This document shows positions 1 through 38,476 of a DNA stretch of 64,000 nucleotides, in pieces; position 1 is the stretch's first letter, and each line of letters starts with the position of its first letter. Origin of the DNA: Candidatus Omnitrophota bacterium (GTDB lineage Bacteria; Omnitrophota; Gorgyraeia; Gygaellales; Profunditerraquicolaceae); NCBI GenBank assembly GCA_017992455.1, contig JAGOOP010000006.1, positions 1,707 through 65,706 on the forward strand, written 5' to 3'. The notes beneath the pieces were generated by a model. It was not told where the DNA came from. It did no database searches and was given only the letters and a program-made list of their open reading frames with translations. Made by a program: the position numbers and the translations under genes.

Positions 1-394
1 TCTGCGGAGGCAGATACGCCCGGGAAGTGACATATCCTCTTCTGCGGTAGGCATCGGTTATCAGATCCGCGACCTTCTGCATGTCGGCAAGGGTCAATTC
101 CCTGTTCTCGAACGGCGCCGTGATCCTGGCGATCTGTTCGTAGTTCAGAAGCGTAACACGGCTGACATTGATGCCTCTGACGAACGCCTTCTGCTCCCGC
201 GAAGCAGGAAGAGGCTGTGCGGCCGCCGGTTCTTCTATCTGCGGCTGTTCCTGCTCCGCCTCGATGCGCTCACGCATAAGCTTCTCTTCTTCAACCTGGC
301 GCTCGCCGGTCTGGACTTTTTCTACCTGGGCAATGACGAATGAGGGAAATAGAACGGAAAGACAGACAACTGCGGCTAGAACGGGATTACGCAT
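1..394 (-). CDS. ShlB/FhaC/HecB-type (TpsB-like) outer-membrane transporter, N-terminal fragment; gene runs off the window at position 1
   Basis: Own minus-strand translation from ATG 394 gives MRNPVLAAVVCLSVLFPSFVIAQ (signal peptide) ...FVRGINVSRVTLLNYEQIARITAPFENRELTLADMQKVADLITDAYRRRGYVTSRAYLPPQ. This parallels the POTRA segment of the 6044-7783 paralog. SD aaggggg lies upstream. Absent from the ORF track because there is no stop in the window. Confidence 0.6.
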   Translation of the reverse strand, partial: MRNPVLAAVVCLSVLFPSFVIAQVEKVQTGERQVEEEKLMRERIEAEQEQPQIEEPAAAQPLPASREQKAFVRGINVSRVTLLNYEQIARITAPFENRELTLADMQKVADLITDAYRRRGYVTSRAYLPPQ

Positions 395-460
395 ACCTGC
401 CCCCTTGTTAGGCTTGATTTATTTAACCTTCATTGTAGCATAATCTTTCGCGCCTGCAAG

Positions 461-550
461 AAAAAAAGGGCTAAAAACGGGGTCAGAATTATTTATTTGC
501 CGGCGCTCACATAGCGAGCAAATAAATAATTCTGACCCCGTTTTTAGCCC
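461..550 (-). terminator. Intrinsic terminator: perfect 33-bp-stem hairpin followed by a U7 tract (minus-strand sense)
   Basis: 468-500 (gggctaaaaacggggtcagaattatttatttgc) is the exact reverse complement of 518-550, with a 17-nt loop. A7 at 461-467 gives U7 on the minus-strand RNA. The hairpin starts 6 nt after the nitroreductase stop at 557. Confidence 0.7.
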
Positions 551-556
551 TTATCT

Positions 557-1057
557 TTACCAGCGCTCATGGTGGATCCTCGCTGTGTTAAAGCGGTTCG
601 CCGGCGGCAGGTCCTGTTCGGGATGGCCGACCGGTATAATGGCAAACGGCACGATATGCTCGGGCAGAGAGAAATATTTCTTAAGGTTATCGACCCTGTC
701 CTGGCGCGGAAAAACCCCAAGCCATACAGCGCCGAGCCCCTGGGACGTCACCTCGATGAGCATATTCTCGACCGCAGCGGAGCAATCCTGCATCCAGTAA
801 CCCTGATGCTTTTCAAGCGACAGGTCCCCGCATACGACGATCGCCACCGGCGCGTCAGCCGCCGCCCGCGCATACGGGGAACATTCGCTGACCTTTTTGC
901 GCGCCCCGGCCTCTCTCACGACGATGAACTGCCACGGCTGCTGATTCCCCGCCGACGGCGCTGCCATCGCGGCAGAAAGTATCTTCTCAACCGCTTCTTC
1001 GCTCACATCCGCGTCCGTGAACCTTCGAACGCTCCTTCTCCTTAATATCGCATCCAT
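557..1057 (-). CDS. Nitroreductase family protein
   Basis: 166 aa. RRRSVRRF and PSAGNQQPW motifs are typical of the FMN nitroreductase fold. SD aggaagga lies upstream. Confidence 0.85.
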   Translation of the reverse strand: MDAILRRRSVRRFTDADVSEEAVEKILSAAMAAPSAGNQQPWQFIVVREAGARKKVSECSPYARAAADAPVAIVVCGDLSLEKHQGYWMQDCSAAVENMLIEVTSQGLGAVWLGVFPRQDRVDNLKKYFSLPEHIVPFAIIPVGHPEQDLPPANRFNTARIHHERW

Positions 1058-1079
1058 GGCATTCCTTCCTATAAATATC

Positions 1080-1107
1080 TTGAAATCGGTTTTTTTTACG
1101 CTACAAT
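1080..1107 (+). promoter_or_regulatory. Sigma70-type promoter, leaderless-type geometry
   Basis: TTGAAA (1080-1085), 16-nt spacer, TACAAT (1102-1107). The ATG at 1114 begins 6 nt after the -10 and has no clear SD. Confidence 0.4.
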
Positions 1108-1113
1108 AAGGGT

Positions 1114-1848
1114 ATGTTCCTGTTTATCCGCCTCCTCTTAGCGCATTTTATCGGCGACTTCCCCCTCCAGTTCGATTTTATATTCAAGCTGAAACTCAAA
1201 GGCCTGCGGGGAGTTATCCCCCACGCGCTGATCATATTCTTCTGCGGCATTGCGATGTCCTGGCCGTATCTTCATATGCCGCTCGTATGGGGATTCCTGG
1301 CCTTCATCGCCATAACGCACCTGATCCAGGACTCGCTAAAGATCAATTACGGAAAATCAAAACACGGCTTCTGGGCATATGTGATCGATCAGATAACGCA
1401 CGCCAGCCTCATCTCACTGATCTTCTTCACCGGACTGAAAGACCTGCCCGCGCCCGAGCCGTCGAACTGGTTCGTCAGGCTCTATTCCCACGACGGCCTT
1501 GTCATCTACCTTATCATCCTCATCGCCGCAACCTACAACGGCCACTTCCTCATCAGATGTTACAAAGACTCGTTCGTCAAGAACGCCAATCCCTGCGACG
1601 CGTATGAAAAATGGTTCGGGATGTTCGAGCGGCTCGCGATCGTATCGCTCTTCCTCACGCCTCTGCCGCTGTGGCTCGTTATCCTGCTGAGCCTTGCTTT
1701 GCGGCCGCTCACCTATGTGTCTCTCAAAGAACGACTGTCCCTGCACCGCTGCTTCGTCGCCGTCCCGGACATGGTCCTCAGCTGGATCATCGGCTTGAGC
1801 TGCGGCATCACGCTCTCTCTACTTCAATCCCGTTACCCGGTATATTGA
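1114..1848 (+). CDS. DUF3307-like multi-pass membrane protein
   Basis: 244 aa, hydrophobic throughout. The N-terminus LLLAHFIGDFPLQ resembles the DUF3307 signature as I remember it. The 3' end overlaps the convergent cyclase gene by 30 nt. Confidence 0.6.
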   Translation: MFLFIRLLLAHFIGDFPLQFDFIFKLKLKGLRGVIPHALIIFFCGIAMSWPYLHMPLVWGFLAFIAITHLIQDSLKINYGKSKHGFWAYVIDQITHASLISLIFFTGLKDLPAPEPSNWFVRLYSHDGLVIYLIILIAATYNGHFLIRCYKDSFVKNANPCDAYEKWFGMFERLAIVSLFLTPLPLWLVILLSLALRPLTYVSLKERLSLHRCFVAVPDMVLSWIIGLSCGITLSLLQSRYPVY

Positions 1849-4056
1849 AATCGGATTTGCCTTTCCCTTGACCATGATCGGCTCCAGTTTCTCCACAATG
1901 ACATGGTCCCGGGCCATCTCATAGGTCGATTCGCTGATGATGATCTCGCCCTTGCCCGCAGCGGCGCACAGCCGCGCGCCGAGATTCACGTTATCCCCGA
2001 TGACCGTGTAATCCATGCGCTCCGCAGACCCCATGTTCCCGACGACCATGTCGCCGGTATTGATGCCGATGCCGATCTGGATCGCAGACTTCGCGTCCTG
2101 GGCAAGTTTCTGGCGCAATTCATCCATTTTTTTCTGTATATCGATGGCGACGCGGATCGCCACAAGCGCGTGGTCCTTTTCATGCCTGTTGCTCGGCGCT
2201 CCGAAGAACGCCATGACCTCGTCACCGACGAACTTGTCGAGCGTGCCGTTGTAATGGAATATCACCTTGACCTGCAATGAAAGGACCTCATTGAGCATCG
2301 CGACGACCTCTTCGGGCTGGCGCGATTCGGAGAACGAGGTAAAACCCCGCACGTCGGAGAACATGACGGTCAGCCGCTTGCGCTCTCCGCCGAGCGTCAG
2401 CCGCGACGGATTATCCATCATCTCGGTGATGACCTCATGCGACAGGTAATGCGAGAACGCGCCCTTGATCCAGAGTTTCTCCCGCTCTTCGGTGAAAAAC
2501 CGGTAACTCGTGATCGCCGTCAGCCCGAACACGACGATCCCCATCGGGCCCACCATGTCGAACCACAATCCGCGGGTGACGAATAAATGCAAAGAAAGCC
2601 AGAAATATCCCCCCGCATACAGAACAGCCAGCAGCAGGCTTTTCCAGAGTTTCAAAAGCGAAACAAAGGTTATGACCAGCGCGGTCAACACGAGCATGAG
2701 CACCCGCAGGGCCATGCGCTGCCTGACGATGAACCGCTCGGTCAGTATGGTATTGATGATGTTCGAATGCGTGCCGACCATTGGATAATTCTCCTGCAAA
2801 GGGATCGGCCGCAGATCGTGCGTGCCGGTCGCGGTCAGCCCCACAATGCAGATCTTGCCGTTGACAAGCGCGGTCAGCCGGGCGATCAGGTCCGCCTCCA
2901 TCTTCTTAAGGGTCTCCTCAGCCCCGGACAGGCTCGCGCCCTGGCCGGACAACTGCATGCGCACGTCCTCAAGCTGCAGGACCAGATAATACGGGATATG
3001 CTTGAACGTCCTGTCCCAGGCGCCGTGCCAGTTCACCATCATGCAGCCTTCGTTGTCGACCGGGATGACAATATCCCTGCGTCCCGGATGGAACCGGGCG
3101 TTCTTAAGCGTGACGCTGTAGGGCGCCAGCTCCACCCGTTCGACCTCAAGCCGGTCGATGAGCGCGGCGATCGTCAGCTGAGGCAATATTTTATCCTCGT
3201 ACCTGACAAACAGGGGGATCTTGCGCGTCACGCCGTCTATATCAGGGTCAGCGTTGATAAAACCGCTGCCCATCATGCGCCGGGCATATTCCACGATCGG
3301 AACGCTCAAGGTCCCTGCTTCATTGGCGTACGGCCACGAGGCAGCGTCTATGGAAAACCGGTTCACGTAGAAATATACCGTCCGGTGATGCTCGAACCGC
3401 TCCCGGGCGTACGCTTCGTCCTCGGGGAACAGGAAGAACCCGTATTCTCTCTCCATGCGCTCCAGGCACGCGTCAAACGACATTTCAGGATCTTTGCGCA
3501 CGATGCCGCGGACCACTTCATCAAGCACCATGCGCCGGGCAATGGGAAGCTTCTCGCGCACAAGGTTCTCGTCAACATTGATCGATCGCGCCGCTTTGTC
3601 CGCAGGAACCGCAATATCATGCATGAGCACTTCTTTGAGTTTCGGAAAAGGAAACGGCTGGGGCTTGCTGAAATAGAACGGAAGGTATGTAATGCCGCTG
3701 CGGTGCATGGCGTCGGCGAACGCCTCGTCCTCGCGCGGATCCCTGTCCGCCTCGCTGAAGATGACATCCCAGAGGACCTGCCGGGCCCCGCATTCATTGA
3801 GGATCTTCGTCAGGCGCGCGTGATACGTCCGGGGCCAGGGCCACCTGCCCGCTTTCTCAAGGCTCCGGTCGTCGATATCGATATGGACGACCGGGCCGCG
3901 GGTCGGCTGCGTGCCCTGAAGGGTAAAACGCAGGTCGAGCGCCTTCAATTCCAGGATCTCATATGGCTTGGAACGGACGGAGAAAAAGATGGCCACCGCC
4001 AGCGAAAGCGTTATCGTAAGGCTGACGGTCAGTTTAAGGCGGGTCTTCTTGTTCAC
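1819..4056 (-). CDS. CHASE2 sensor domain-containing class III adenylate/guanylate cyclase
   Basis: 745 aa with a GTG start. It has an N-terminal TM, a ~400-aa periplasmic CHASE2-like region (DDRSLEKAGRWPWPR) and 3 TMs. The cyclase core carries MFSDVRGFTSFSE, KFVGDEVMAFFGAP and YTVIGDNVNLGARL. Confidence 0.9.
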   Translation of the reverse strand: MNKKTRLKLTVSLTITLSLAVAIFFSVRSKPYEILELKALDLRFTLQGTQPTRGPVVHIDIDDRSLEKAGRWPWPRTYHARLTKILNECGARQVLWDVIFSEADRDPREDEAFADAMHRSGITYLPFYFSKPQPFPFPKLKEVLMHDIAVPADKAARSINVDENLVREKLPIARRMVLDEVVRGIVRKDPEMSFDACLERMEREYGFFLFPEDEAYARERFEHHRTVYFYVNRFSIDAASWPYANEAGTLSVPIVEYARRMMGSGFINADPDIDGVTRKIPLFVRYEDKILPQLTIAALIDRLEVERVELAPYSVTLKNARFHPGRRDIVIPVDNEGCMMVNWHGAWDRTFKHIPYYLVLQLEDVRMQLSGQGASLSGAEETLKKMEADLIARLTALVNGKICIVGLTATGTHDLRPIPLQENYPMVGTHSNIINTILTERFIVRQRMALRVLMLVLTALVITFVSLLKLWKSLLLAVLYAGGYFWLSLHLFVTRGLWFDMVGPMGIVVFGLTAITSYRFFTEEREKLWIKGAFSHYLSHEVITEMMDNPSRLTLGGERKRLTVMFSDVRGFTSFSESRQPEEVVAMLNEVLSLQVKVIFHYNGTLDKFVGDEVMAFFGAPSNRHEKDHALVAIRVAIDIQKKMDELRQKLAQDAKSAIQIGIGINTGDMVVGNMGSAERMDYTVIGDNVNLGARLCAAAGKGEIIISESTYEMARDHVIVEKLEPIMVKGKANPISIYRVTGLK

Positions 4057-4089
4057 GTGGTGGCTCGCGAATGGCCGCGGCGGATGGCG

Positions 4090-5103
4090 CTAGAACCGGT
4101 AATACGCCGAAAGCGACATCAATGATCCGGAATACCGTTCGCCCGGCTCGTTCGATTTGTTCTGCCGGTACGAATAATTCAGGCCGAGCGAAAGCGCTTT
4201 GTTGACCGTATAGAACAACGCGGCCGTGTACAGGTATGTCTTGTCCTCCTGATTGGCGCCCGTGTCATTGATCAATGTCCTGGTGCGGTAATCCCTGATC
4301 TGCCGCGACGCGGACAGGTAGCCGAAAAGCTTGGTCGAGAACAGATGCGTCAGGGACGCGCCGAACCGGAACGAATCGTAATCATAATAGTTCAGGTATT
4401 TCTCGTCGGAATTATTATTGTAATACTCGAAATTGAGCTTGAACATGTCCTTTTCGAAGAATTTGCCGATCTCATACGTAAAGGTATTGCGCACGTCATC
4501 GCGTTTTTTCGTGCCGACGACGCCGTCATGGGAACGGTTATACCGCTTGGCGTAATTCCGGTAGGAACCGTCATACCTGAGGCTGTGGAACATCTTTTCA
4601 GGCAGTGTCTGCTTGAACTTCAGGTCGATGATCTGCTCGATGTAATCGTCGGTGCCCGTGTGATAGTATTCGATCACGTCGAACCCGTATCCGCCCGAAA
4701 GGGTGATGTTCTTGTTGAGCCGGTGGTCAAGCCCCGTGTGGATGCCGTTGCGTATCATATCGAGCTTGCGGTGGTCAGGATACACGAGGTTCATGAGCTC
4801 GTAGTCGAAGAAGAACTCCGTCTGGCGCCAGATCGGTCCGGCGAACGAAGAGCTGATGAATTCCTGCGTGTAGAGATCTCCGTCGCGGCGGCTGTCAAGA
4901 TACGCGTTATTGTCGTAGCCGACCGTGACAGCGGCGAGATTATTGAAATCGCCTTTTTCCCACAATGTCTGCTGCGCTTCGAGATATATCTTCTTGACCC
5001 TCGGCGTGACCTCCTCTTCCATGAGATCGGCTGCGCTGCAGAGCGCCGGGATGGAAAAGGCAACTGCCATCAACCAGACAATTTTTGCTCTCGACATGGA
5101 CAT
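4090..5103 (-). CDS. Outer-membrane beta-barrel protein, family uncertain
   Basis: 337 aa with signal peptide MSMSRAKIVWLMAVAFSIPALCSA. Alternating Y/N/D/R-rich strand pattern and an OMP-type C-terminus ...LSAYYRF. SD AGGAGG. Confidence 0.6.
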   Translation of the reverse strand: MSMSRAKIVWLMAVAFSIPALCSAADLMEEEVTPRVKKIYLEAQQTLWEKGDFNNLAAVTVGYDNNAYLDSRRDGDLYTQEFISSSFAGPIWRQTEFFFDYELMNLVYPDHRKLDMIRNGIHTGLDHRLNKNITLSGGYGFDVIEYYHTGTDDYIEQIIDLKFKQTLPEKMFHSLRYDGSYRNYAKRYNRSHDGVVGTKKRDDVRNTFTYEIGKFFEKDMFKLNFEYYNNNSDEKYLNYYDYDSFRFGASLTHLFSTKLFGYLSASRQIRDYRTRTLINDTGANQEDKTYLYTAALFYTVNKALSLGLNYSYRQNKSNEPGERYSGSLMSLSAYYRF

Positions 5104-5151
5104 CGTTCCTCCTTGGAAATGATTATACCCCGCCGGCCATACGGCGTCTTA

Positions 5152-6009
5152 TTACGGCTCATACGGTTCGTAAGGTTCCTCGTGCTCCTCTTCTTCCAGC
5201 CGGTCCTTTATATCCTCGATCGTATTGCGCTCGTCGGTAATATCCTTGGTGTCGATGATCTGGTCCAGGGCCGATTTCTTCTCTTCCGCCTGCTCGCTCA
5301 GGGTCTCGATGACGGATTTTTCCGGCTCGAACCTTCGTTCCCGTTCCTGGCGCCGCGGCTCTCTTCCTTCTGCGCGGCTCGTCAGGTCGCTGCGGATATT
5401 ATCGAATTTTTCGAATTCCCTCAGGCTCACCTGCAGGAGCGCGCTCGGCTCCTTGAACCGCTCGATAAAGGTCCTGAAGCCTTCGGGAAGCATCATATCC
5501 ATCAACTGCACATTATCGGCGTCAAAAGCCTTGATGAACACCGTATCCTTCAATGCCGCCACTTCGTCCTGGTCAGGCTCCACGTACACCATGTAGCTGG
5601 AACCCCTGACGCCGGCCACAGCCGACGGCGTGGTCACTTCAAAGCTCATTCCGGCCCTGAGGCCTTCGAGGTTCGAATATACCCTTCCGCGGGAAATGTC
5701 GAGCCGGTCGATGACCGTATCGCTCTCGGCCGCGTGCAGGACCGCAAGGGTCTTTTCGGCAAGTTGTATCGTGTTCTTCTTTTCGCTGTCAAGGGCGATA
5801 TCGACCTTTGAATGGCGCGCGGTCCTTACCGTGTCCCCGACGTTCAACTGCATGCCTTTTTCCGCTGTTCTCCACTCCTGGCTGTTGGAGGACTGCACCT
5901 GGACATTGCCCTGAACAAAAAGGACTTCTGCCGAATGCGCCGCCCCGAGAATGGAAATGACCGCAAGGGCAAGCATTATACTCAGTATCAACATCCGATA
6001 TCTTCTCAT
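5152..6009 (-). CDS. Secreted FecR domain-containing protein
   Basis: 285 aa with signal peptide ...ILGAAHSA. FecR-like core VLFVQGNVQVQSSNSQEWRTAEKGMQLNVGDTVRTARHSKVDIALD. Acidic disordered tail ...RLEEEEHEEPYEPYEP. Confidence 0.8.
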   Translation of the reverse strand: MRRYRMLILSIMLALAVISILGAAHSAEVLFVQGNVQVQSSNSQEWRTAEKGMQLNVGDTVRTARHSKVDIALDSEKKNTIQLAEKTLAVLHAAESDTVIDRLDISRGRVYSNLEGLRAGMSFEVTTPSAVAGVRGSSYMVYVEPDQDEVAALKDTVFIKAFDADNVQLMDMMLPEGFRTFIERFKEPSALLQVSLREFEKFDNIRSDLTSRAEGREPRRQERERRFEPEKSVIETLSEQAEEKKSALDQIIDTKDITDERNTIEDIKDRLEEEEHEEPYEPYEP

Positions 6010-6043
6010 ATTCGTCTCTCCCTCTGTATTGAATACGCTATGA

Positions 6044-7783
6044 TCAGAACCCCTTGGTTATGGCAAACCACGCGTGAGCGTGATCGCCGTCCTTGGTCGG
6101 TTGGTCGCTCAAAGGCCAGCCGATGTCGAGACGGAATGAAAACGCCCTGTCCGGGACCTTGAACTCGCAGCCGATGCCGCCGGACGTATATTCATAGTGC
6201 TTCGGATTTCCTTCCTGATGTGTCTTGAAGCTTGCCTTCGCGTAATCGAGGAACGTGAACAAACGCACGGCATCATACATCTTGGTCTTTGAATACGGCA
6301 CAGAGAGCCCCCGCGACAGGCCGAACGGAGGAAATGACAACCCGGTGGTAAAAGATATCCCTTCGTCTCCGGGCGCCTGGGCCCGCGGGAAGCCCCGCAT
6401 ATCGATGACACCCATGAAACCGCCGATACTGAAAACGTTGACCCCGGGCTGTGCCTGCGAGGATTTCTGCCAGTGCATTTTGCCGAGCCAGTCGATGTCT
6501 TTCATGAGCTTCTGCCTTCTGGCAACGATCAAATGGTTCTTCTTATACCCGCCGCCTGCGCCAGCGACGGAGCAGGATTCGTCTTCAGCCGTTGACGCGC
6601 CGAATATCCGGGGAATGCCGATCTCCAGGTCGTTGGCCACGATCCAGCGGCCGTACCGGTCAACGCGGTTCAGGTCGAGGCTCCAGAGCGCAGCGCCGAA
6701 CTTATCCGCCTTTTGCTTCCTGCCGTATTTCCACCAATGGATGTTCTTATGCACAAAACCGTAGCTCGACACGAACTCGCAGCCCGGCTCGTCGATCAGC
6801 GATTGATAAAAATAGAAATACCACTTGTACGCGTGTTTTTCAAAATCCGTATCGACATTGTCCCCGCAGCAGTAATCCTCGAGCTTATACGGCATGTAAT
6901 AGAACTCGAACTTCCAGTCGGGGTTCAAAGGAAGAAAATAATCGAAATCGAACAAACGGTGGGCGTCGGATTCGGTCGCCTGCGCCTTGAACTGCAGCGT
7001 GTCATCGTGGCCGGTAAAGTTATTGTGCGTGATATAGGTCTTATACCGCTTGTAGGTGATATATTCAGAGCCGTAATTGTCCATCTGCAGCGTTACATGC
7101 ACGGGTTTCTTATCTTTGACCGTCAGGATGACGTCGGTAAGCCCGGTCTGCACATCCGGGTCGCAGGTGATCGAAACCTTGCGGTCCGGATGCTTATTGA
7201 TGCGGTAGATGGAATTGTTAAGCTTCTTGAAATTGAAATAATCCCCTTCTTTCAAGGTAAGCTTCTTTTTGAACACGGCGTCGGAAAAATGCTCGTTGCC
7301 TTCGATGACGATCTTTCCGGTCCGGCCTTCCTTTACGACGATCTGAAGGATGCCTTCGCCAAGCCGCGAAGGATCGATATACCCGTACGAGGTGATGTAC
7401 CCTTCCCTGCTGTACGCGCGGGTCACGCGGTCCGCCACATATTGAAGCTCCCTGCCGGTCAGCTCGCGGTTCTCGTACACGGTCTTCAAACGGGCCCGCG
7501 CCTCAGGCGCCAGGATGGTCGCGCCGACGACACGGACTTCCTTGATAAGGGTCTTGCCCGCAGGCAGCGTGGGCTTGGGGATCTGCGATTCGACGGTCTG
7601 CTTCAGGATGATAGCCGGAGATTTCTGCCGCCCTGCTCCGATGTTCTGCTGGATCGCCTCGGATCTCGGGCTGTCATCATCGCCGCCATCGAGAGCGAAC
7701 GCCGCAGAGGGGCTGACAATGACCGCAGCGAGTAAGAAGACATATATCCATTGCTTTATGCCGCACCACGCTCTTTCTATCAT
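6044..7783 (-). CDS. ShlB/FhaC/HecB family (TpsB-like) outer-membrane transporter with POTRA domain
   Basis: 579 aa with a signal peptide. POTRA segment IKEVRVVGATIL...RELQYVADRVTRAYSREGYITSYGYIDP. Large barrel ending WFAITKGF. SD AGGAGG 8 nt upstream of the ATG. Confidence 0.85.
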   Translation of the reverse strand: MIERAWCGIKQWIYVFLLAAVIVSPSAAFALDGGDDDSPRSEAIQQNIGAGRQKSPAIILKQTVESQIPKPTLPAGKTLIKEVRVVGATILAPEARARLKTVYENRELTGRELQYVADRVTRAYSREGYITSYGYIDPSRLGEGILQIVVKEGRTGKIVIEGNEHFSDAVFKKKLTLKEGDYFNFKKLNNSIYRINKHPDRKVSITCDPDVQTGLTDVILTVKDKKPVHVTLQMDNYGSEYITYKRYKTYITHNNFTGHDDTLQFKAQATESDAHRLFDFDYFLPLNPDWKFEFYYMPYKLEDYCCGDNVDTDFEKHAYKWYFYFYQSLIDEPGCEFVSSYGFVHKNIHWWKYGRKQKADKFGAALWSLDLNRVDRYGRWIVANDLEIGIPRIFGASTAEDESCSVAGAGGGYKKNHLIVARRQKLMKDIDWLGKMHWQKSSQAQPGVNVFSIGGFMGVIDMRGFPRAQAPGDEGISFTTGLSFPPFGLSRGLSVPYSKTKMYDAVRLFTFLDYAKASFKTHQEGNPKHYEYTSGGIGCEFKVPDRAFSFRLDIGWPLSDQPTKDGDHAHAWFAITKGF

Positions 7784-7874
7784 GTATAGATCCTCCTTTT
7801 GCCGGAATAATCCGCAAAGTTAACTGATTATATGTTAATACTCGCCTTTCCTTTGTCAAGTAAATACTTGCCGT

Positions 7875-8555
7875 TCATCGCGTTTCGCTCCTCTTTTGAG
7901 AAAAATAATTTATAAAAACGACGATGAACGTGACACACACAAGCAATTGCGCTATGACGACCAGTTGTCCTGCGGTATTTTTCGGCCCGATATCGCCGAA
8001 CCCGACCGTTGTGGTCGCGACAACGCTGAAATAGAACGCAGAAACCGGGTCCATCGCCCTGTCCAGCAGGTCAAAGGCCATATAAACAACTGCAAAATCC
8101 GCCATTACCTCTATATAGTGCAGAAAAATAAGCAAAAGCGACCGATGGTAAGAAACAACAGCAGTATGCAGGTCATCAAGGAATACCAGATGGAGGATAT
8201 GGACGAATGTATCGCACAGAAAATATATGATAAGGAACACCGCAAAAGGGTTCGCATGCCATCCCTGCCACAGAACTGCCAGCGGGAACAGGAATTTGAA
8301 AAGCGTATATGCCTCGACTGCCAATTTGCGCCCGGGCGCCCCCCAGTACCCGAACACATCCCGTATCAAAAGGACCGGGAACAGGAACTGCACCAGGCAC
8401 AGAGAAAGGCGCGCGATCCGCTCAAGGCCATAGGTCTGTTCGCCCCAGACCTTTCGCACCTGCTCCATCTGCCGGGCATACGCCTCATGGATCTTATCGC
8501 GCCCGCCTGAACGCGGCACCGGATTTGCAAAGATCTTCAGGAATCCCTGTCTCAT
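7875..8555 (-). CDS. Ion-channel (K+ channel-like, two-TM pore) protein
   Basis: 226 aa. TM helices plus a pore loop with selectivity-filter-like TTTVGFGDIGP. Confidence 0.75.
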   Translation of the reverse strand: MRQGFLKIFANPVPRSGGRDKIHEAYARQMEQVRKVWGEQTYGLERIARLSLCLVQFLFPVLLIRDVFGYWGAPGRKLAVEAYTLFKFLFPLAVLWQGWHANPFAVFLIIYFLCDTFVHILHLVFLDDLHTAVVSYHRSLLLIFLHYIEVMADFAVVYMAFDLLDRAMDPVSAFYFSVVATTTVGFGDIGPKNTAGQLVVIAQLLVCVTFIVVFINYFSQKRSETR

Positions 8556-8558
8556 TGT

Positions 8559-9398
8559 TTAGTAATAAAACACCGTATAATACTGCATTGTATCGTCTTT
8601 GGTGAACCATTTCTTATCGGGCCCGGGGCCGATATACTTTTTTTCTTTGGTCTTGCGGCTGTCTGCGTTGTAAAAACATTCTTTTGTCGAAGTAACGGCG
8701 TCATCCGCGGTGAACCATACTCCGTCTTTGCCCCTGCCTCCTTCTGAACCGTGGAACTCCCTGACCTTGCCCATTTTGTGCTTGTTGTCATAGTCGAACA
8801 AATGGTATTTTACGATCTCATCGCCTTTATATTCCACATCCTTGACGATCAATCCGGCATGGCCGTGGAAGTAATTGATCGAGCCGATCTCATGGTTCTG
8901 CGGGTCATACCGGCTCACTTTCATTTTCTGCCCCGCATTGTCATACGCATAGACGCCGGTATACTGCAGTATTCCCGTACCGGTAAACAGGGACTCGCCG
9001 GATACCTGCCCGTCAGGCCTGAACTCATAGGTCATATAGTCATCGAGAATATCGTCATCGGTCATCAACAGGCCGTCAACGCCTTTCAGGTGCCCGGACC
9101 TGCGCACGAGCCTGCCCTTGTTGTCGTAATGCAGAAGATAATACTCGTGCACATCATCGTCTTTCGTGAACCAGGCCCCGTCAGCGCCCGCCGTATATTT
9201 TATCTCTTTGCTCACCCGTTCGGGGACGTTCGAGGCAAGCCCCTCGGGTTTTTCCTGATCGAAAAACGGATCGTTCCCCGCCATCCTGCTTTCCCGGTCG
9301 AATTCGATCATCTGCGCCGCGCCTCGGGTAAAAATGAGCGCAAGCATGACAACGCACATGACCGCTATGAAAATTCCGCAATAGATATCTCTTCTCAC
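8559..9398 (-). CDS. Exported repeat protein (G.DG.WFT.DD and YD-like repeats), function unknown
   Basis: 279 aa with a GTG start and an N-terminal TM/signal. Three copies of G(A/K/P)D(G/K).WFT(K/A)DD, plus YAYDNAGQ, FDYDNKHK and LHYDNKGR repeats. Confidence 0.6.
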   Translation of the reverse strand: MRRDIYCGIFIAVMCVVMLALIFTRGAAQMIEFDRESRMAGNDPFFDQEKPEGLASNVPERVSKEIKYTAGADGAWFTKDDDVHEYYLLHYDNKGRLVRRSGHLKGVDGLLMTDDDILDDYMTYEFRPDGQVSGESLFTGTGILQYTGVYAYDNAGQKMKVSRYDPQNHEIGSINYFHGHAGLIVKDVEYKGDEIVKYHLFDYDNKHKMGKVREFHGSEGGRGKDGVWFTADDAVTSTKECFYNADSRKTKEKKYIGPGPDKKWFTKDDTMQYYTVFYY

Positions 9399-9412
9399 CG
9401 TATATATCCCTC

Positions 9413-10531
9413 TTATTTCTCCGGCGCGCTGGCCGCAGGTTTTGTCTTAAGCGTTGCGACGGTCTTGACGACGCGGAATCCCACCACCTGCCGGCTCAAA
9501 TAATCGAAACTGCGGAACCGGTTGTTATAGACTTCGGGATGGATCACCGCATCCATGACGAACGGCATGCCCATGCCTTTGCGATAGCCCGGATCGAGGA
9601 GAAAACTGCCTCCCCTGATCACCCGCGCAGCCCGGAACGACTTGAACACCGGCAGATTGAAAAAAAGTGTCTGCCCCGCGCCCACCGGATCCGTCAGTTT
9701 GGTTCCGCCCGAATAGAAATCGTTATACCAGTCATTGCACCATTCTGCGACATTGCCGGCCATATCGCAAATGCCCAGCTTGCTGTCGCCTTTGGGCGAA
9801 TACGAGCCCGCGGCGGTCGTATCCACGTCAACGGGGTCCTTGACCGTATGCCCCATGTTCGCGAACGAATCATCACCGGGTTCATTGCCCCACGGGAACG
9901 CGCGTCCGTCGTCAAAGCACGCGGCATATTCCCATTCCGCTTCGGTCGGAAGCCGGTAGCCGGTCTTGCCGTACACCTGGCACGACCAGTCATCGAGGTT
10001 ATATAAGGTCGGGAACCCTTCCATTTCGCCGAGCATATTGCAGAAGAACGCGGCGCCGTACCAGGACACTTCGACCACGGGAAAATCCTCCTTGCCCGGA
10101 TGCGGCTTGAATTTTCCGTCAACGAACGCGATCTGCGAATGCTCGTCGAAAACATCCTGGTATTTCTGCGGCGAACGGGACACGCCGCGGGCTTCCCTCT
10201 TTTTCGCGTCCTCGGCCAATGCCGCCTTGTCGAGGTATCCTTTGGACAGGGCGAAATTCAGCACATCGGCGTACTGCTGATTGGAAACTTCGTATTTTCC
10301 GATGTAGAAATCATCGGTCAATGTTACCTCGTGCATTGGCTTGGCGTTGGCGAATTCATCAGAGCCCATCATGAACGTGCCGGCAGGGACCTTGACCATC
10401 TGGGATATCACGACCTGCGCAGGCGCCTCAGCCCCCTGCTGTCCCTGCTGCGAGAACGCCTGCCGCGATGCAGTCCACGTACCCGCGCCGATCGCCGCCG
10501 CCGCGCACACCCATATTCCCAATCGTCTCAT
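9413..10531 (-). CDS. Formylglycine-generating-enzyme (FGE-sulfatase/SUMF1) family protein, secreted
   Basis: 372 aa with a signal peptide. Motifs MVKVPAGTFMMGS, YRLPTEAEWEYAA, GNVAEWCNDWY and RVIRGGSF. Confidence 0.9.
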   Translation of the reverse strand: MRRLGIWVCAAAAIGAGTWTASRQAFSQQGQQGAEAPAQVVISQMVKVPAGTFMMGSDEFANAKPMHEVTLTDDFYIGKYEVSNQQYADVLNFALSKGYLDKAALAEDAKKREARGVSRSPQKYQDVFDEHSQIAFVDGKFKPHPGKEDFPVVEVSWYGAAFFCNMLGEMEGFPTLYNLDDWSCQVYGKTGYRLPTEAEWEYAACFDDGRAFPWGNEPGDDSFANMGHTVKDPVDVDTTAAGSYSPKGDSKLGICDMAGNVAEWCNDWYNDFYSGGTKLTDPVGAGQTLFFNLPVFKSFRAARVIRGGSFLLDPGYRKGMGMPFVMDAVIHPEVYNNRFRSFDYLSRQVVGFRVVKTVATLKTKPAASAPEK

Positions 10532-10588
10532 TTCCCCTCCTTAACTAAAACCATTACAAGTAGTAACGATTATGATCTATCAGAACAG

Positions 10589-10713
10589 GATGAAAGGTCT
10601 GGTGTAGTGTCAGATGCGAGTTCCCGCACAAGCGGGATACTGACGTAATACCTATTTAACGTCAGGTATGCAGTTCCTGTTTGAGCAGATGACACTACAC
10701 CAGGCCTTTCATC
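10589..10713. repeat. 125-bp structured intergenic element with 29-bp terminal inverted repeats
   Basis: 10589-10617 (gatgaaaggtctggtgtagtgtcagatgc) pairs with 10685-10713, with 3 non-identities of which one is a G-U pair. Inner hairpins are cccgc-acaa-gcggg and atactgacgt...acgtcaggtat. It lies between the two FGE paralogs, 6 nt after the stop at 10720. Confidence 0.6.
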
Positions 10714-10719
10714 ATATAC

Positions 10720-12342
10720 TCAAAATCCTAATCGGCACCCGCTGTTTTTGCCGTCTTCGCTCTTGGGGAAATTCGCCGCGAATCTGAGCGCGATCCGCAG
10801 ATATTTGGGTTCGGGGCTGGACCAGACGCCGCCGCGGTTGCCTGCGCCTGCGCCGTCCTTGCCGGGCCAGTTCGCCGCATTGCTGTAACCGTCCGCATCG
10901 AGCTCGCCGTCGCCGTGTCTGGCGTCGAACGCGCGGCCGAGCTCATGGCCGATGGTAACGCACCGCTCCCACACGTTACCCGATAAATTCCGGACGCCGT
11001 AATACGAAGCGCCGTCGTTGATCCGTTCGGGGACACCTTCCACGCGAAGGTTCTCGAAGACCTCGCCCGATACAGGCCCCTCGAAACCGGGATTATCCGG
11101 CTTCTCTTTCTTGCCCACGTCGAACGGAGCGATACCGCCACCGAAACACGCGTTCACAACGCCTTTCTGCGGGACCTTCTTTTCATATCCCGAACCGTCG
11201 GCGCCGTCGAACGTTTCGACACGGCCGATGTTCGCGGTATCGTCCATGGACACGCCCCAGGCAAGCTCGTTGAGAAGAGCCTCTCCGGGGCCGCGGCAGG
11301 CCTTTTCATATTCCAGTTCGGTGATCGGCCGCAATCCTGACCAATCGCCGATCGAGGCGATATTCGACCAGGACATGAAATTCACCGTGCGCGCCGGGGC
11401 ATACGTATAGAATCTCACCGGTTCGGCGGTCCTGTTGCCTTTTTTCGCCGCGACAATGGCGTTGCGCAGATGTTCTTCCTCGCTGTTGGTCTTGACATAA
11501 TAGTTTTTGATCTCATCGCCGGAGATATCGGCTTCCACCATGCTCTGCTGCTGTTTTCTCGTCAGCGTGTTGAGGAAATCGCAGAATTGCTGGGAAGTCA
11601 ACTCGTATTTCATGATCCAGAAGGGCCGGAACCCTTTGGGAAACGCCTTCGGGATCGTGAACGGAGTATCATCCCTGCTGCGGGGATTGTCCTGGTCGCA
11701 GAACAAAGCGCCGTCCTGCTTGTCGACCAGGATCGGCTCTTCGGAACCGATCAGGTATGCGCCGTTGTTCGGATATACATACAACGCATTATCCGGGCCG
11801 TCAGGTCCTTTGGGATCGCCCACATAATGCTTATCCTTAGGTATATAGACCATTTCATAGCCGAACACCCTGACCGGCGCCTTCATGACCTGCTCGGGCG
11901 TCAGGCCGTCCTTGACATAATCCCACACGAACCTGACGTTCTTTGCCGCAACACTGCCCGATCCTTTGAGCCTGAAAAGGAAAAAACCCTTTTTCCCGTC
12001 GGGAACCAGCATGCCGGCGTTCGGGTCGTCGCCGCGCGAAAAACGGTTCGGCGCGCAGTCCGCATAGGTGTACTGCGAGCCGCTTGCGGATTTGAGCGTC
12101 ACGTGGCGCCAGGTGCCTTCAGGCGACAGAAATTTCGCAAAGACCCATACGCCGTCCGAATTGACATCGTTCTTCCACGCGTTGTCCCACGACACGTCGC
12201 ACTGGATCACCGCCGCCTTGCGTTCAATATTGACCTCGGAGACAAGCGCTTTGTCGATCTTCAAATGGCTTGCGAAAACCGGACTGCCCGCAAACACCGC
12301 AGCAGCCATGGCGAACACACAATGCAGGACCCTCATCTTCAT
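10720..12342 (-). CDS. FGE-sulfatase domain protein with N-terminal extension, secreted
   Basis: 540 aa with a signal peptide. Motifs FWIMKYELTSQQF, ITELEYEKACRG, GNVWERC and NRGGVW. Has a ~230-aa N-terminal beta-rich domain. Confidence 0.85.
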   Translation of the reverse strand: MKMRVLHCVFAMAAAVFAGSPVFASHLKIDKALVSEVNIERKAAVIQCDVSWDNAWKNDVNSDGVWVFAKFLSPEGTWRHVTLKSASGSQYTYADCAPNRFSRGDDPNAGMLVPDGKKGFFLFRLKGSGSVAAKNVRFVWDYVKDGLTPEQVMKAPVRVFGYEMVYIPKDKHYVGDPKGPDGPDNALYVYPNNGAYLIGSEEPILVDKQDGALFCDQDNPRSRDDTPFTIPKAFPKGFRPFWIMKYELTSQQFCDFLNTLTRKQQQSMVEADISGDEIKNYYVKTNSEEEHLRNAIVAAKKGNRTAEPVRFYTYAPARTVNFMSWSNIASIGDWSGLRPITELEYEKACRGPGEALLNELAWGVSMDDTANIGRVETFDGADGSGYEKKVPQKGVVNACFGGGIAPFDVGKKEKPDNPGFEGPVSGEVFENLRVEGVPERINDGASYYGVRNLSGNVWERCVTIGHELGRAFDARHGDGELDADGYSNAANWPGKDGAGAGNRGGVWSSPEPKYLRIALRFAANFPKSEDGKNSGCRLGF

Positions 12343-12358
12343 AAAACCTCCCCGTATA

Positions 12359-13783: not shown

Positions 13784-14394
13784 GTATTGCCCCCTTTCAG
13801 AAGCGTCAGCAGAGCGCTGCCGAACTCCCCTGCGGCAGCGGGGCCGTTGGCGGTCACGATATTCCCGTATATCTCGACGGGGTTGGCCGTATAATGCACC
13901 CCGCACGCCTTAAAATTCTCTGCTTCGGAAGGATATACGGTCGCCCGCTTGTATTTCAGCACGCCTGCTCTGGCAAGGATCATCGGAGCCAGGCAGATCG
14001 CGCCGATCACCTTTTTGGCAACGAACGCATCATAAATAAGCTTATGGGCGACCGGATCGTCGATATACTGGACCGAACCGGAACCGCCGATGAATACGAC
14101 GGCATCGAAATCAGCCGCCCTGACATCTTTGAGCAGCATATGCGGCTTGACGATCAGGCCGTTCATGCCGGAGACCTGCTTGAGCGTGGTCGAGGCTACG
14201 GTGACCCCGACGCCGCTGTTCTTGAGCATGCGCAGCGGCTTGGCCAGTTCATCGTCCTGAAAATCCTTTGCGGCGATGACGAATACCGCTTTTGCTTCAG
14301 GGCCTGCGGCGAACGCGCGGCCAATACCGCCCGATATCACAGCAGACAACACTGCGGCTGCGGCAGCAATAAAGAATATTTTTTTCATTATCAC
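13780..14394 (-). CDS. DJ-1/PfpI family protein, exported
   Basis: 204 aa with signal peptide MIMKKIFFIAAAAAVLSAVISGG. Nucleophile elbow GAICLAP. Confidence 0.85.
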   Translation of the reverse strand: MIMKKIFFIAAAAAVLSAVISGGIGRAFAAGPEAKAVFVIAAKDFQDDELAKPLRMLKNSGVGVTVASTTLKQVSGMNGLIVKPHMLLKDVRAADFDAVVFIGGSGSVQYIDDPVAHKLIYDAFVAKKVIGAICLAPMILARAGVLKYKRATVYPSEAENFKACGVHYTANPVEIYGNIVTANGPAAAGEFGSALLTLLKGGNT

Positions 14395-20441: not shown

Positions 20442-21011
20442 TTATCCTTTTGCCGCGATCAATTCAATGATCTTCTTCGCGAACACGTTACAATGGCCGC
20501 CGCTGCGGCCGGTGACCAGATCCCCGTCCACGACCACGTCCTCGTTGACATAAACCGCGCCCATGTTCTTCGCGTCGCCGAGCAGATTATTGTGCACAAC
20601 GACCTTACGTCCCTTTACCAGCTCGGGAGCCGGCGCAATAAGCCACATGCCGTGGCAGATAATGCCTTTAATGATATTCTTCTGGGCAAAGGCCCGCTTC
20701 ATGAATTCCGTCGCCGGCGGCAGTTTACTGACGTCTTCGGTATAGCGCAGGCGGTCCGCCACCATGCCCGCAGGCACGATGATCGCAGCAAAGCTCTTCA
20801 ACTGCGCATCGTCCATATCCTCAAAGCTCTCATGACAATCCATAGGGATCTGATATTCATGGCCCTTGAACGTGAGCGACGTGCAGCCCCACAGCCTCGT
20901 CATAAAATGCACGTCGATGCCTTCTTCGGCAAAACGGAACTTATAATACCATATCTCCGGTTCATAATAATCCCCTTCGAGCAAGATCCCGATCTTTTTG
21001 CCTTTCAACAT
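20442..21011 (-). CDS. DJ-1/PfpI family protein
   Basis: 189 aa. KKIGILLEGDYYEPEIWYYKFRFAEEGIDV and GIICHGMWL (Cys elbow). Its start overlaps the upstream gene end by 7 nt. Confidence 0.8.
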   Translation of the reverse strand: MLKGKKIGILLEGDYYEPEIWYYKFRFAEEGIDVHFMTRLWGCTSLTFKGHEYQIPMDCHESFEDMDDAQLKSFAAIIVPAGMVADRLRYTEDVSKLPPATEFMKRAFAQKNIIKGIICHGMWLIAPAPELVKGRKVVVHNNLLGDAKNMGAVYVNEDVVVDGDLVTGRSGGHCNVFAKKIIELIAAKG

Positions 21012-22576
21012 GGTTTTGCCCCTTTCTGGGCGCCTGTATACCGCACCGCCAGCATCGTAATGTCATCGGACTGCTGCGCGCCGCGGGCGAATACCGTCAC
21101 TTCCCGGCGCATTGCCTGGATCATGTCCTTGATACCGTTATCCTTAAGCGAAATGAGCTTTTCGCGAAGCCGCTCTTCGCCGAATTGTTTTCTATCCGGG
21201 TCCATGGCCTCGGTCACGCCGTCGGTATAGAGGAAGATCGTATCCCCGGGCTTCAAGCGCAGGCGCTCATTCGTGCATTTCAGGTCAGCCATGATACCCA
21301 CCACGAACCCGCACGCCATCTTGATGAAATTGAAACAGCCGGTCGCGTCGCACACCAGCGGCGGATTGTGGCCGCCGTTGGAGAACTCGATCTCGCCGGT
21401 GGCGATATCGAGGATCGCGCAGAAGACCGTGACGAACAGGCACGTCTGGTTGTCCTGGCACAGGATGCTGTTGACCACGGACAGGACCTCGTCCGTCGCC
21501 AAGCCCTGCTTCGCCTCGGTCTTGATGAGCGTCTTGCAGATGGCCATGAACAGCGCCGCGGGCACGCCCTTGCCTGAAACGTCGCCGATGACAAAGCACA
21601 ACCGCGACTCGTCGATGAAGAAGAAATCGTAAAAATCCCCGCCCACTTCTTTCGCCGGGTCCATCATGGCGAACAGTTCGAACTCCGCGCGTTCCGGGAA
21701 CACGCTCGGCAGCATGCTCGCCTGGATCTCCTGGGCGATGCGCAGTTCGCTTTCGATGCGCTCGCGCGCCGCGGTCTCGGCCTTGAGGTTCTCGATGAAC
21801 CGCTTGATGGAAAGCTGTATGAGGTCGATCGCCATGGCAGGATCTTTGCCGAAAAATTCGATCACCTCGTCCTTGCCCATCGTATAAACGTCCGTGTCTT
21901 CCTCGCACACGGCTGAAGCGGTCCGTTCCTTGAACGGCGAAAAGATGCCCATTTCCCCGAGCACATCGCCCTGCTTGACGACCTTGTCGATCTCAGGCAG
22001 ACGGATCGAGCCTTTGGCGATATAGAACATGCGGTCTGCCTTATCCCCTGCCTTGAACAGGCAATCCCCTTTTTTGTACGTCTCAAGCTTCATGAACGAG
22101 ATCGGCCAGCGGCACGAGTTGCCCGCTTTCGCAGCGGAGGCCTGGACCGCCGAATGCAGGTCCTTGGGGCTGCACGTATTGTATTTGACAAGGGTCAGGA
22201 TATTGCGGTCATTGTCCCGTTTATACGAAACATCGTCCATGATCTTCTTCATCATGAATACGCCCAGGCCGCCGATCTGGCGTTCTTCGATGGGCTTGTG
22301 GATATCGGGTTCGGGAAGGGATAAAGGATCAAAGGGGACGCCGGAATCGATGACCGTTATTTCCAGATATGAATTGCTGTTGAGATAGGTGATCTCGAGG
22401 TCTCCCGTGCCGCCGGGATACGCGTAATTGATCACGTTGACAAGCGCCTCTTCGCAGGCAAGCTGTATCTTGTCGATGTGCTCCTTGACAAAACCCTGGC
22501 GGGCTGCGCCTTCTCTGATAAAGGCGAACATGGTTTCGAGATTTTCCAGTTTGGCGGGCAGGACAAGGCGTTCCAT
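21005..22576 (-). CDS. Tri-domain fusion: RsbW-like GHKL kinase + cyclic-nucleotide-binding domain + PP2C/SpoIIE phosphatase
   Basis: 523 aa. Residues 1-135: CEEALVNVINYAY...GGLGVFMMKKIMDDV (HATPase_c_2-like). Residues ~165-260: FKAGDKADRMFYIAKG...GDVLGEMGIF...RTASAV (cNMP phosphate-binding cassette). C-terminus: AKEVGGDFYDF, GDVSGKGVPAALFMA, DGVTEA and SDDITMLAV (SpoIIE). Confidence 0.85.
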   Translation of the reverse strand: MERLVLPAKLENLETMFAFIREGAARQGFVKEHIDKIQLACEEALVNVINYAYPGGTGDLEITYLNSNSYLEITVIDSGVPFDPLSLPEPDIHKPIEERQIGGLGVFMMKKIMDDVSYKRDNDRNILTLVKYNTCSPKDLHSAVQASAAKAGNSCRWPISFMKLETYKKGDCLFKAGDKADRMFYIAKGSIRLPEIDKVVKQGDVLGEMGIFSPFKERTASAVCEEDTDVYTMGKDEVIEFFGKDPAMAIDLIQLSIKRFIENLKAETAARERIESELRIAQEIQASMLPSVFPERAEFELFAMMDPAKEVGGDFYDFFFIDESRLCFVIGDVSGKGVPAALFMAICKTLIKTEAKQGLATDEVLSVVNSILCQDNQTCLFVTVFCAILDIATGEIEFSNGGHNPPLVCDATGCFNFIKMACGFVVGIMADLKCTNERLRLKPGDTIFLYTDGVTEAMDPDRKQFGEERLREKLISLKDNGIKDMIQAMRREVTVFARGAQQSDDITMLAVRYTGAQKGAKPC

Positions 22577-29761: not shown

Positions 29762-30189
29762 GAAAGGCTCTGAATGGTTTTCGACATCCTGACGCCGCTG
29801 CCGTTGTCGTAGAACTCGACTTTATCCATAAGCTTGCGCATGAGATACACGCCGCGGCCCGAGGGCTGATGCGCCTTTTCTCCCCGTGTCGGGTCGGGAA
29901 GGACGCGGAAATCGAACCCGTCGCCTTCGTCATGGATGTCCATGGTGATCTGCCGGGGGCCCGCGTCGATATGCACGGTGACAAAACAACGCTCATCGAG
30001 CCGGTTTCCGTGGCGCATGGAATTGACCATCGCTTCCTCGAGCGCGAGCTTGATCTTGAATACATCGTCCTTGGAGCCGATCAACGGCAGAAGTTCCTGC
30101 GCGACGCGGTCAAGGAACGGGTTGACGGCCTTCAGGTCGGTCTTGAGCTTCTCGTGCACGCGGTATATGGATGCCATATGGTCCGTCAT
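29758..30189 (-). CDS. RsbW/SpoIIAB-type anti-sigma regulatory factor (Ser/Thr kinase, GHKL ATPase)
   Basis: 143 aa. LALEEAMVNSMRHGN, DEGDGFD and GRGVYLMRKLMDKVEF. ATGA overlaps at both ends. Confidence 0.85.
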   Translation of the reverse strand: MTDHMASIYRVHEKLKTDLKAVNPFLDRVAQELLPLIGSKDDVFKIKLALEEAMVNSMRHGNRLDERCFVTVHIDAGPRQITMDIHDEGDGFDFRVLPDPTRGEKAHQPSGRGVYLMRKLMDKVEFYDNGSGVRMSKTIQSLS

Positions 30190-30578: not shown

Positions 30579-30588
30579 TGCGGCCTCC

Positions 30589-38451: not shown

Positions 38452-38476
38452 ATCAAACGCCTCCTGAGGACGCATT

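Follow-up and report, generated by a model that had tools for sequence, protein, structure and literature searches.

Why should a gene for a TpsB-like outer-membrane transporter, with no gene for a TpsA partner beside it, stand directly ahead of genes for a secreted FecR-domain protein, an outer-membrane beta barrel and a CHASE2 receptor cyclase? This arrangement lies in a 64,000-nucleotide stretch of DNA from a Candidatus Omnitrophota bacterium (assembly GCA_017992455.1, contig JAGOOP010000006.1, positions 1,707 to 65,706 of the forward strand), which we call the window and whose own numbering we use throughout. Four minus-strand open reading frames (ORFs) follow one another there: gene 1, TpsB-like (7783<-6044, 579 aa); gene 2, FecR (6009<-5152, 285 aa); gene 3, the barrel (5103<-4090, 337 aa); and gene 4, the CHASE2 cyclase (4056<-1819, 745 aa, with a GTG start codon). 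We refer to genes 2 to 4 as the triad. An earlier note, made from the sequence alone, had proposed that these four co-directional, closely spaced genes tie an event at the outer membrane to cyclic nucleotide synthesis. Its coordinates are exact and Pfam bears out its domain calls for all four genes; the gaps between the genes, in order from gene 1 to gene 4, measure 34, 48 and 33 nt.

With somewhat better than even confidence, we read the locus as an envelope-to-cAMP module of the type known from the NsrA and CyaK proteins of S. meliloti, in which the outer part is split among separate genes and gene 1 is an accessory. Judged from gene content and sequence, the conserved core is genes 2 to 4, with the TpsB-like gene a frequent but apparently dispensable neighbor.

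Genes 2 to 4: a FecR protein, a barrel and a predicted adenylate cyclase

Gene 4 (1819..4056, minus strand) encodes a predicted inner-membrane receptor adenylate cyclase, with Pfam matches to CHASE2 (1.4e-48) and Guanylate_cyc (7.7e-26). Its hydrophobicity profile and Pfam matches together give a transmembrane segment at residues 6-29, a periplasmic CHASE2 domain at ~30-445, three transmembrane segments within residues 446-515 and a cytoplasmic class III (IIIb-type) cyclase domain. This architecture, with CHASE2 in the periplasm and a class III cyclase in the cytoplasm, is the same as that of CyaK. Among solved structures, P. aeruginosa CyaB (3r5g, 5.4e-45) is the closest, and comparison with it places the metal Asp residues of gene 4 in FSD and GDE, the Lys in LDKFVGD and the Thr in MDYTVIGD, with the Asn and Arg also present (NVNLGAR). 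The guanylate cyclase Cya2 (2w01) has a Glu at the position of gene 4's Lys. Because the Lys/Thr specificity residues are those of CyaB, cAMP is the predicted product, and we class gene 4, as a prediction from sequence, as an adenylate cyclase of the class IIIb Lys/Thr type. The earlier note had left the product as cAMP or cGMP; the cyclic nucleotide output stands, and these residues narrow it to cAMP.

The cyclase domain is also matched by the PADLOC models for PycC (best 2e-32), as would be expected if gene 4 were a Pycsar-type anti-phage cyclase. We consider this extremely improbable: the PycC match reflects the shared class III fold, the structural match to CyaB is at 5.4e-45 versus 6.6e-5 for a cytidylate cyclase, gene 4 is a CHASE2 membrane receptor, and Pfam finds no gene for a cyclic nucleotide monophosphate (cNMP)-binding effector adjoining it.

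Gene 2 (5152..6009, minus strand; Pfam FecR, 4.7e-9) encodes a secreted protein composed of a cleavable signal peptide, a conserved FecR domain at residues ~30-190 and a low-complexity tail at 201-285; each of genes 1 to 3 begins with a single N-terminal hydrophobic signal segment. The tail is charged and net acidic (isoelectric point (pI) 4.5, with 28 D/E per 85 residues). In the alignment of gene 2 orthologs, TPSAVAGVRGS and LPEGFKTFIERF are conserved and the tail is variable. The best NCBIfam matches are to Leptospira FecR-domain lipoprotein and surface adhesin families (LipL45, Lsa33, Lsa19), all below their cut-offs. We also considered gene 2 as an anti-sigma factor of the FecIRA kind and rejected it: the protein has no anti-sigma domain, and the genes nearby include neither an ECF sigma factor nor a TonB-dependent transducer. 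The neighbors of gene 2 are the Ion_trans_2, TpsB-like, barrel and cyclase genes.

Gene 3 (4090..5103, minus strand) encodes a porin-like outer-membrane beta barrel, identified from its AlphaFold2 model and a weak Pfam match to BBP2_2 (3.2e-7). The model (predicted local distance difference test (pLDDT) score 83.9) has 14 long strands, and the protein carries a signal peptide and ends in YYRF. In the PDB its fold comes closest to CymA and OmpG, monomeric channels of 14 strands, with a template modeling (TM) score of ~0.5 that marks a generic likeness. Across the orthologs the Pfam matches are likewise weak and spread over several families: BBP2_2 in 18 of 22, DUF2490 in 14 of 22 and SlipAM in 4 of 22.

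The last of these families bears on another reading of gene 3, in which it would be a Slam/type XI-like 14-stranded translocator that brings the FecR protein to the cell surface. The number of strands in the model fits, the barrel gene is always 3' of the FecR gene, and the weak SlipAM (PF04575) matches among the orthologs reach 1.9e-6. Gene 3 of the window has no SlipAM match of its own, however, and it lacks the N-terminal TPR domain that Slam proteins have. Moreover, its best structural matches are the generic 14-stranded channels, and one related locus (L040; L numbers are our handles for the loci compared) has the FecR and cyclase genes but no barrel. We therefore regard a Slam-like role for gene 3 as very unlikely.

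NsrA/CyaK and other FecR genes beside CHASE2 genes

On plasmid pSymB of S. meliloti, a 1224-aa ORF abuts a CHASE2 cyclase gene and encodes a FecR domain (4.7e-16), TPR repeats and a C-terminal barrel. We take nsrA to lie immediately upstream of cyaK, in agreement with the annotated pSymB record, which has a "FecR domain-containing protein" directly before cyaK. The published description of the size and barrel of NsrA (PMC7529298) agrees as well, and from its position and size we therefore take the 1224-aa protein to be NsrA. The FecR domain of gene 2 is homologous to the N-terminus of this NsrA-like protein (BLASTP 4e-6; hhalign 1.3e-5 over 100 columns). In S. meliloti, the outer-membrane protein NsrA is needed to activate the CHASE2 cyclase CyaK (PMC7529298, PMC13001267), and the coupling from the envelope to cyclic nucleotide synthesis that the earlier note envisaged thus has an experimentally studied relative. 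The acidic surface loops of NsrA have been proposed as its ligand site (PMC7529298).

The triad resembles NsrA/CyaK in having a FecR gene upstream of a gene for a CHASE2 and class III cyclase protein (here with the barrel gene between them), an outer part that includes an outer-membrane barrel, homologous FecR domains and cAMP as its output (here predicted). By analogy, the gene 3 barrel would receive or admit an external cue, and gene 2 would act as a periplasmic FecR adaptor that relays the state of its outer-membrane partner to the CHASE2 domain of gene 4, whose cytoplasmic class IIIb cyclase domain would then make cAMP. Gene 1 would be an accessory outer-membrane component rather than a classical TpsA exporter, one that most plausibly docks or handles the FecR protein by means of its POTRA domains. 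The cAMP would be read by cNMP-binding proteins. One candidate, already singled out by the earlier note as a cNMP-binding partner-switch protein, is encoded at 21005..22576 (minus strand): Pfam confirms a fusion of an RsbW-like kinase (HATPase_c_2, 2.3e-28), a cNMP_binding domain (1.6e-14) and a SpoIIE/PP2C phosphatase (SpoIIE, 2e-50), and this protein may read the cAMP made by gene 4. What the sequences show directly is the architecture and topology of the proteins with their signal peptides, the adenylate cyclase residues of gene 4, the homology of the FecR domains, the recurring FecR-CHASE2 adjacency and the synteny of gene 1. Within this scheme we infer the contact between FecR and CHASE2, which way the signal runs, what the cue is, which proteins read the cAMP and any role of gene 1.

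The pairing of FecR with CHASE2 extends well beyond these two loci. Among the annotated CHASE2 genes that we sampled from a plasmid collection, a FecR gene lies directly upstream in four out of four, with cyclase, kinase-type and EAL outputs: S. meliloti pSymB, Variovorax (response regulator-FecR-CHASE2), Methylocystis and R. leguminosarum (FecR-CHASE2/EAL). A Methyloprofundus plasmid adds a FecR-CHASE2 cyclase pair next to a CRP gene, and none of these five sampled replicons has a TpsB gene there. Published clusters include a LysM/FecR gene in an operon with a CHASE2 histidine kinase in Burkholderia and Pseudomonas (PMC5192318), a CHASE2 adenylate cyclase cluster with a FecR outer-membrane protein in Campylobacterota (PMC9239204) and Clr-CyaD1-SMc02177(FecR) on the S. 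meliloti chromosome (PMC5498481).

The window itself holds a second FecR-CHASE2 module, at 27893-31629 (minus strand), with neither a TpsB nor a barrel gene. Its order is FecR (31629<-30589; the protein has a basic Q/K-rich tail and a pI of 10.4), STAS (30647<-30186), an RsbW-like kinase (30189<-29758) and a CHASE2-SpoIIE phosphatase (29761<-27893), and just upstream of it, on the same strand, are genes for an ankyrin-repeat protein (32522<-31698) and a dCache-HAMP-SpoIIE protein (34260<-32350). A third secreted FecR protein, of 669 aa and with two FecR domains, is encoded at 36607-41815 (minus strand), where its gene adjoins those for a TPR protein (40009<-38477) and an AsmA/DUF748 protein (41815<-40031), and this pairing of FecR with TPR is reminiscent of the way the NsrA-like protein is built at its N-terminal end.

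Several points weigh against our reading of the locus. The FecR and barrel domains that are fused in the NsrA-like protein are separate genes in Omnitrophota, and the TPR repeats are absent. The barrels also differ, gene 3 having 14 strands in a 337-aa protein and the NsrA-like barrel region spanning roughly 600 aa, and neither BLASTP nor hhalign with the gene 3 profile found any similarity between the two. The same two programs, applied to gene 1 and the S. meliloti NsrA-like protein, returned nothing outside the FecR domain. With no similarity detected between the barrels and no TPR repeats, the description of the locus as a split NsrA is an architectural analogy except in the FecR domain. 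Our literature search found no demonstrated binding of FecR to CHASE2, and the free FecR protein SMc02177 of S. meliloti is dispensable for perception of the shoot signal (PMC5498481), implying that a free FecR protein beside a CHASE2 cyclase does not always act upstream of it. Finally, all the evidence for synteny of gene 1 with the triad, described below, comes from one phylum, and this synteny may be due in part to common descent and not to function.

Gene 1 and its neighborhood

Gene 1 (6044..7783, minus strand) encodes an outer-membrane protein of the Omp85 family with a TpsB fold, as judged from Pfam, an AlphaFold2 model and a fold search. It matches POTRA_2 (2.7e-14, residues 80-153), POTRA (3.9e-11, residues 156-197) and ShlB (4.4e-12), and the model (pLDDT 80.8) shows two alpha/beta modules followed by a roughly 16-stranded barrel. 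The best fold in the PDB is CdiB (6wim; E 1.5e-28, TM-score 0.69/0.74), and Foldseek ranks CdiB 6wim, CdiB 6wil and FhaC 4ql0/4qky ahead of BamA and TamA. The L6 motif reads DMRGFPR, with R463, G464 and P466 invariant in 29 orthologs. Where an N-terminal plug helix H1 might be sought, the model places helices at residues 39-49 and 57-67, at a pLDDT of only ~55-62. We tried and rejected an assignment as BamA, since the TIGR03303 model gives gene 1 52 bits and has its cut-off at 297; the protein is 579 aa long and has two POTRA domains versus five. A housekeeping BamA was the alternative that the earlier note itself had named, and gene 1 falls far below the BamA equivalog cut-off and is nearer in fold to TpsB. 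The CdiB/FhaC-like fold, the L6 motif and the low BamA score together indicate a true TpsB-fold protein, not BamA.

What such a protein might carry is less obvious. Pfam finds no two-partner secretion (TPS) domain in gene 2, gene 3 or the genes upstream, so there is no adjacent cognate TpsA. A canonical TpsB gene does lie at the edge of the window (394..1, minus strand; POTRA_2, 4e-16), which cuts it so that its 5' end is all that falls inside; in the source contigs (L002 15390-17740) this second TpsB is 567 aa long and is followed, beyond the start of the window, by a TpsA of ~1950 aa that has TPS and Laminin_G_3 domains. The statement in the earlier note that no TpsA is present thus holds for the gene cluster and for the window but is false for the wider genome neighborhood, where, however, the TpsA has a transporter of its own. 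Gene 1 belongs to a separate orthologous group, confined mostly to Omnitrophota. The identical protein occurs on 16 metagenomic contigs, and its relatives are named Candidatus Omnitrophota.

We examined the neighbors of gene 1 relatives at 43 GTDB loci, 23 of them informative for a FecR gene downstream; homolog searches for genes 1 to 3 returned only the orthologous groups, mainly in Omnitrophota, and distant contexts were drawn from the plasmid collection. At 18 of the 23 informative loci, gene 1 has a FecR gene within the next two genes, at 33-88% identity, sometimes with an Ion_trans_2 gene in between. The five loci in which the gene 1 ortholog is followed by something other than FecR are L025, L027, L029, L031 and L035: housekeeping genes in the first two, a gene for a small lipoprotein-like protein in L035, and in L031 (1835-3621) and L029 (5239-6968), where the gene 1 ortholog is 44% identical, a gene for a ~430-aa secreted Pro/Lys-rich repeat protein. 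This last protein has a Spy/CpxP-like (DUF2680) C-terminus, and the next gene encodes a small membrane protein that shares this C-terminal domain; the Pro/Lys-rich protein could be an alternative partner for the TpsB branch to which gene 1 belongs. Where identity to gene 1 is 25-34%, the relatives are ordinary TpsBs, and a TPS-type protein can be seen to follow some of them; the cyanobacterial plasmid relatives proved to be ordinary TpsA-TpsB pairs.

Conversely, the FecR-barrel-CHASE2-cyclase triad occurs without gene 1 at L062 and L063, and FecR and barrel genes occur without gene 1 at L060, where the contig stops ahead of any cyclase. The metagenome-assembled genome (MAG) STC_70 has both, but apart: its triad is at L062 and its gene 1 ortholog elsewhere, at L029. 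Gene 1, which the earlier note counted in one four-gene operon with the triad, is therefore not part of the conserved core, given the two triads that lack it and the genome that keeps it elsewhere.

One explanation for the frequent adjacency would make gene 1 a type Vb transporter that needs no TpsA and has the FecR protein as its cargo: either the whole protein or just its acidic tail, passed through the pore, would reach the surface, sense a cue there and signal back to CHASE2. Gene 1 has the full TpsB fold and the conserved RGF of the L6 motif, no TPS-domain gene adjoins it, and FecR is within two genes of it at most of the informative loci. The tail of gene 2 is acidic, as are the loops at which NsrA is proposed to bind its ligand (PMC7529298), and its sub-threshold NCBIfam matches are to Leptospira surface adhesins and lipoprotein. 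In addition, the orthologs at L029 and L031 that lack a FecR gene are followed by a gene for a secreted, highly charged, disordered protein, and two proteobacterial records have FecR genes inside canonical TPS loci: a Gammaproteobacteria MAG (L054 2043-11359; TpsA-FecR-TpsB, with a 527-aa FecR protein that has two FecR domains) and plasmid 4 of Variovorax sp. SRS16 (L058 4564-9381; TpsB-TpsA-FecR, with a 156-aa FecR protein).

We nevertheless consider export quite unlikely. Gene 2 has no TPS domain and its tail is poorly conserved; FecR-CHASE2 modules do without TpsB in the window and on five other replicons; the triads at L062 and L063 lack gene 1; and in one MAG gene 1 is at a separate locus. 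Both termini of an outer-membrane barrel face the periplasm. In the NsrA-like protein the FecR domain precedes the barrel and is thus expected to be periplasmic, which argues against any need for export. The earlier note's framing, in which the FecR protein is exported through gene 1, accordingly fares poorly, since gene 2 lacks a TPS domain and its FecR domain is expected to be periplasmic.

The opposite explanation is that gene 1 is a functionally unrelated neighbor, whether an orphan Omp85/TpsB paralog, one with another partner, or a member of the upstream block of MFS, FGE-sulfatase and Ion_trans_2 genes, and that the cluster reflects tight packing only. It is part of a long co-directional run, the triad is intact without it at some loci, its orthologs stand beside unrelated genes at L025, L027, L029, L031 and L035, the Ion_trans_2 gene swaps sides of it among loci, and GAF and SpoIIE genes are inserted ahead of FecR in L009. 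We find this explanation rather unlikely, given the 34-nt spacing and shared orientation at our locus, an adjacency that is kept down to 33% identity despite rearrangements (L037, L040), and the independent occurrence of FecR-TpsB adjacency in Proteobacteria. On these grounds we rate an accessory partner above both a dedicated FecR exporter and an unrelated neighbor.

The literature that we searched contains little on such associations: we found nothing that links CHASE2 to TpsB, ShlB, FhaC or POTRA, or FecR to TPS, save for one Caulobacter table, and a survey paper on Omp85 and TpsB proteins mentions neither FecR nor orphan TpsBs. The table lists CCNA_00635-00639, among which are genes for a CHASE2 membrane receptor, for a hypothetical and for a TPR protein, and two HxuA-like "heme:hemopexin-binding" genes (PMC11724286, Table 1); their locus tags are consecutive and a single small RNA represses them together (PMC11724286), which hints at a link between CHASE2 and TPS in Alphaproteobacteria.

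Transcription of genes 1 to 4 as a unit is a prediction, based on their spacing and on a minus-strand scan in which none of the internal gaps held a terminator-like site. The four genes form the downstream end of a longer minus-strand co-directional run that extends from an MFS gene at 13906 to 1819. In the 91-nt gap upstream of gene 1 there is a promoter-like consensus match, TTGACA-16 nt-TAACAT (7832..7859, minus strand), and 3' of it, ahead of gene 1, a strong Shine-Dalgarno sequence, AAAGGAGGA; the counts from the promoter and terminator scans are not above shuffled expectation in the scanned region. The 48-nt gap between genes 2 and 3 contains a short GC-rich hairpin, CGCCG...CGGCG (5122-5146, minus strand), followed by a perfect TATAAT (5127->5122) ~20 nt before the gene 3 start codon; the two could form an internal promoter or a processing site. 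An Rfam scan of window positions 1-14000 gave no matches.

The genes on either side of the cluster recur at related loci. The Ion_trans_2 gene immediately upstream (7875..8555, minus strand; Pfam 1e-12) encodes a K+-channel-like membrane protein of 226 aa; elsewhere it lies between genes 1 and 2, or directly ahead of gene 2 when gene 1 is absent, and its position varies among L032, L033, L034, L037, L040, L008 and L062. It is the last member of an upstream block (7875-13906, minus strand) that is conserved in Omnitrophota and also encodes an MFS transporter, two FGE-sulfatase-domain proteins and a 279-aa secreted protein in which G-x-DG-x-WFT-x-DD motifs recur and for which Pfam gives no match. 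At the other end, a gene for a DUF3307 multi-pass membrane protein (1114..1848, plus strand; Pfam 1.3e-14) is convergent with gene 4 and overlaps its 3' end by 30 nt. This gene adjoins the cyclase gene at most related loci, including L061 and L062, which have no TpsB gene, and is replaced by CNNM-type genes at L063. Partner-switch and cNMP-reader genes also recur around related clusters: in L009 (9870-11112) the inserted GAF and SpoIIE genes separate the TpsB-like and FecR genes, and in L008 (16940-17740) a gene for a cNMP_binding-Zip protein lies ~2 kb downstream of the cyclase gene.

Implications and comparison with known systems

The sensor domain CHASE2 is widespread in bacteria, and its input is still given as unknown. 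The occurrence of FecR before CHASE2 in two modules of the window, five replicons and three published clusters makes a hypothesis about this input directly testable, namely that the cognate input of CHASE2 is not a small ligand but a FecR-domain protein coupled to an outer-membrane barrel. Reconstitution should be simpler with the Omnitrophota version, whose parts are split into small separate genes, than with the 1224-aa NsrA-like fusion. The TpsB-FecR neighborhood, seen in Omnitrophota and in the two proteobacterial TPS loci, is undescribed in the literature that we searched and, if functional, would widen the roles of TPS transporters. It is improbable, in our estimate, that gene 1 represents a TpsA-independent branch of type Vb secretion that handles secreted FecR or other charged, disordered proteins; if it did, a surface-exposed FecR protein would report directly to a periplasmic CHASE2 domain, FecR proteins would be a second class of TpsB client, and the long-unknown input of CHASE2 would be identified.

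Among known systems, gene 1 is like the TpsB proteins FhaC, CdiB and ShlB in its two POTRA domains, Omp85 barrel and L6 RG(F/Y) motif, and unlike them in having no TPS-domain partner adjoining; it is ~31% identical to the canonical TpsB paralog of the same genome, whose TpsA is present. Gene 2 shares with the FecR protein of FecIRA a FecR (PF04773) domain outside the cytoplasm, a region that in E. coli FecR contacts the outer-membrane barrel protein (PMC5498481), but it has a cleavable signal peptide where the latter has an N-terminal anti-sigma domain and a membrane anchor. The Campylobacterota and Burkholderia clusters are like our locus in that a gene for a secreted FecR protein lies beside one for a CHASE2 receptor with which it has been inferred to share a pathway. 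They differ in their other members, which are a phosphodiesterase and a TPR protein in one case and a response regulator and DUF4136 in the other; no TpsB-like gene is reported for either, and the output in Burkholderia is a kinase.

The closest relative remains NsrA/CyaK, from which the Omnitrophota locus further differs in the extra TpsB-like gene ahead of the triad and in a host that is not a rhizobium. That a FecR-linked outer-membrane component feeds a CHASE2 adenylate cyclase was thus already known; the split three-gene form, its occurrence in Omnitrophota and the recurrent TpsB-like neighbor are new.

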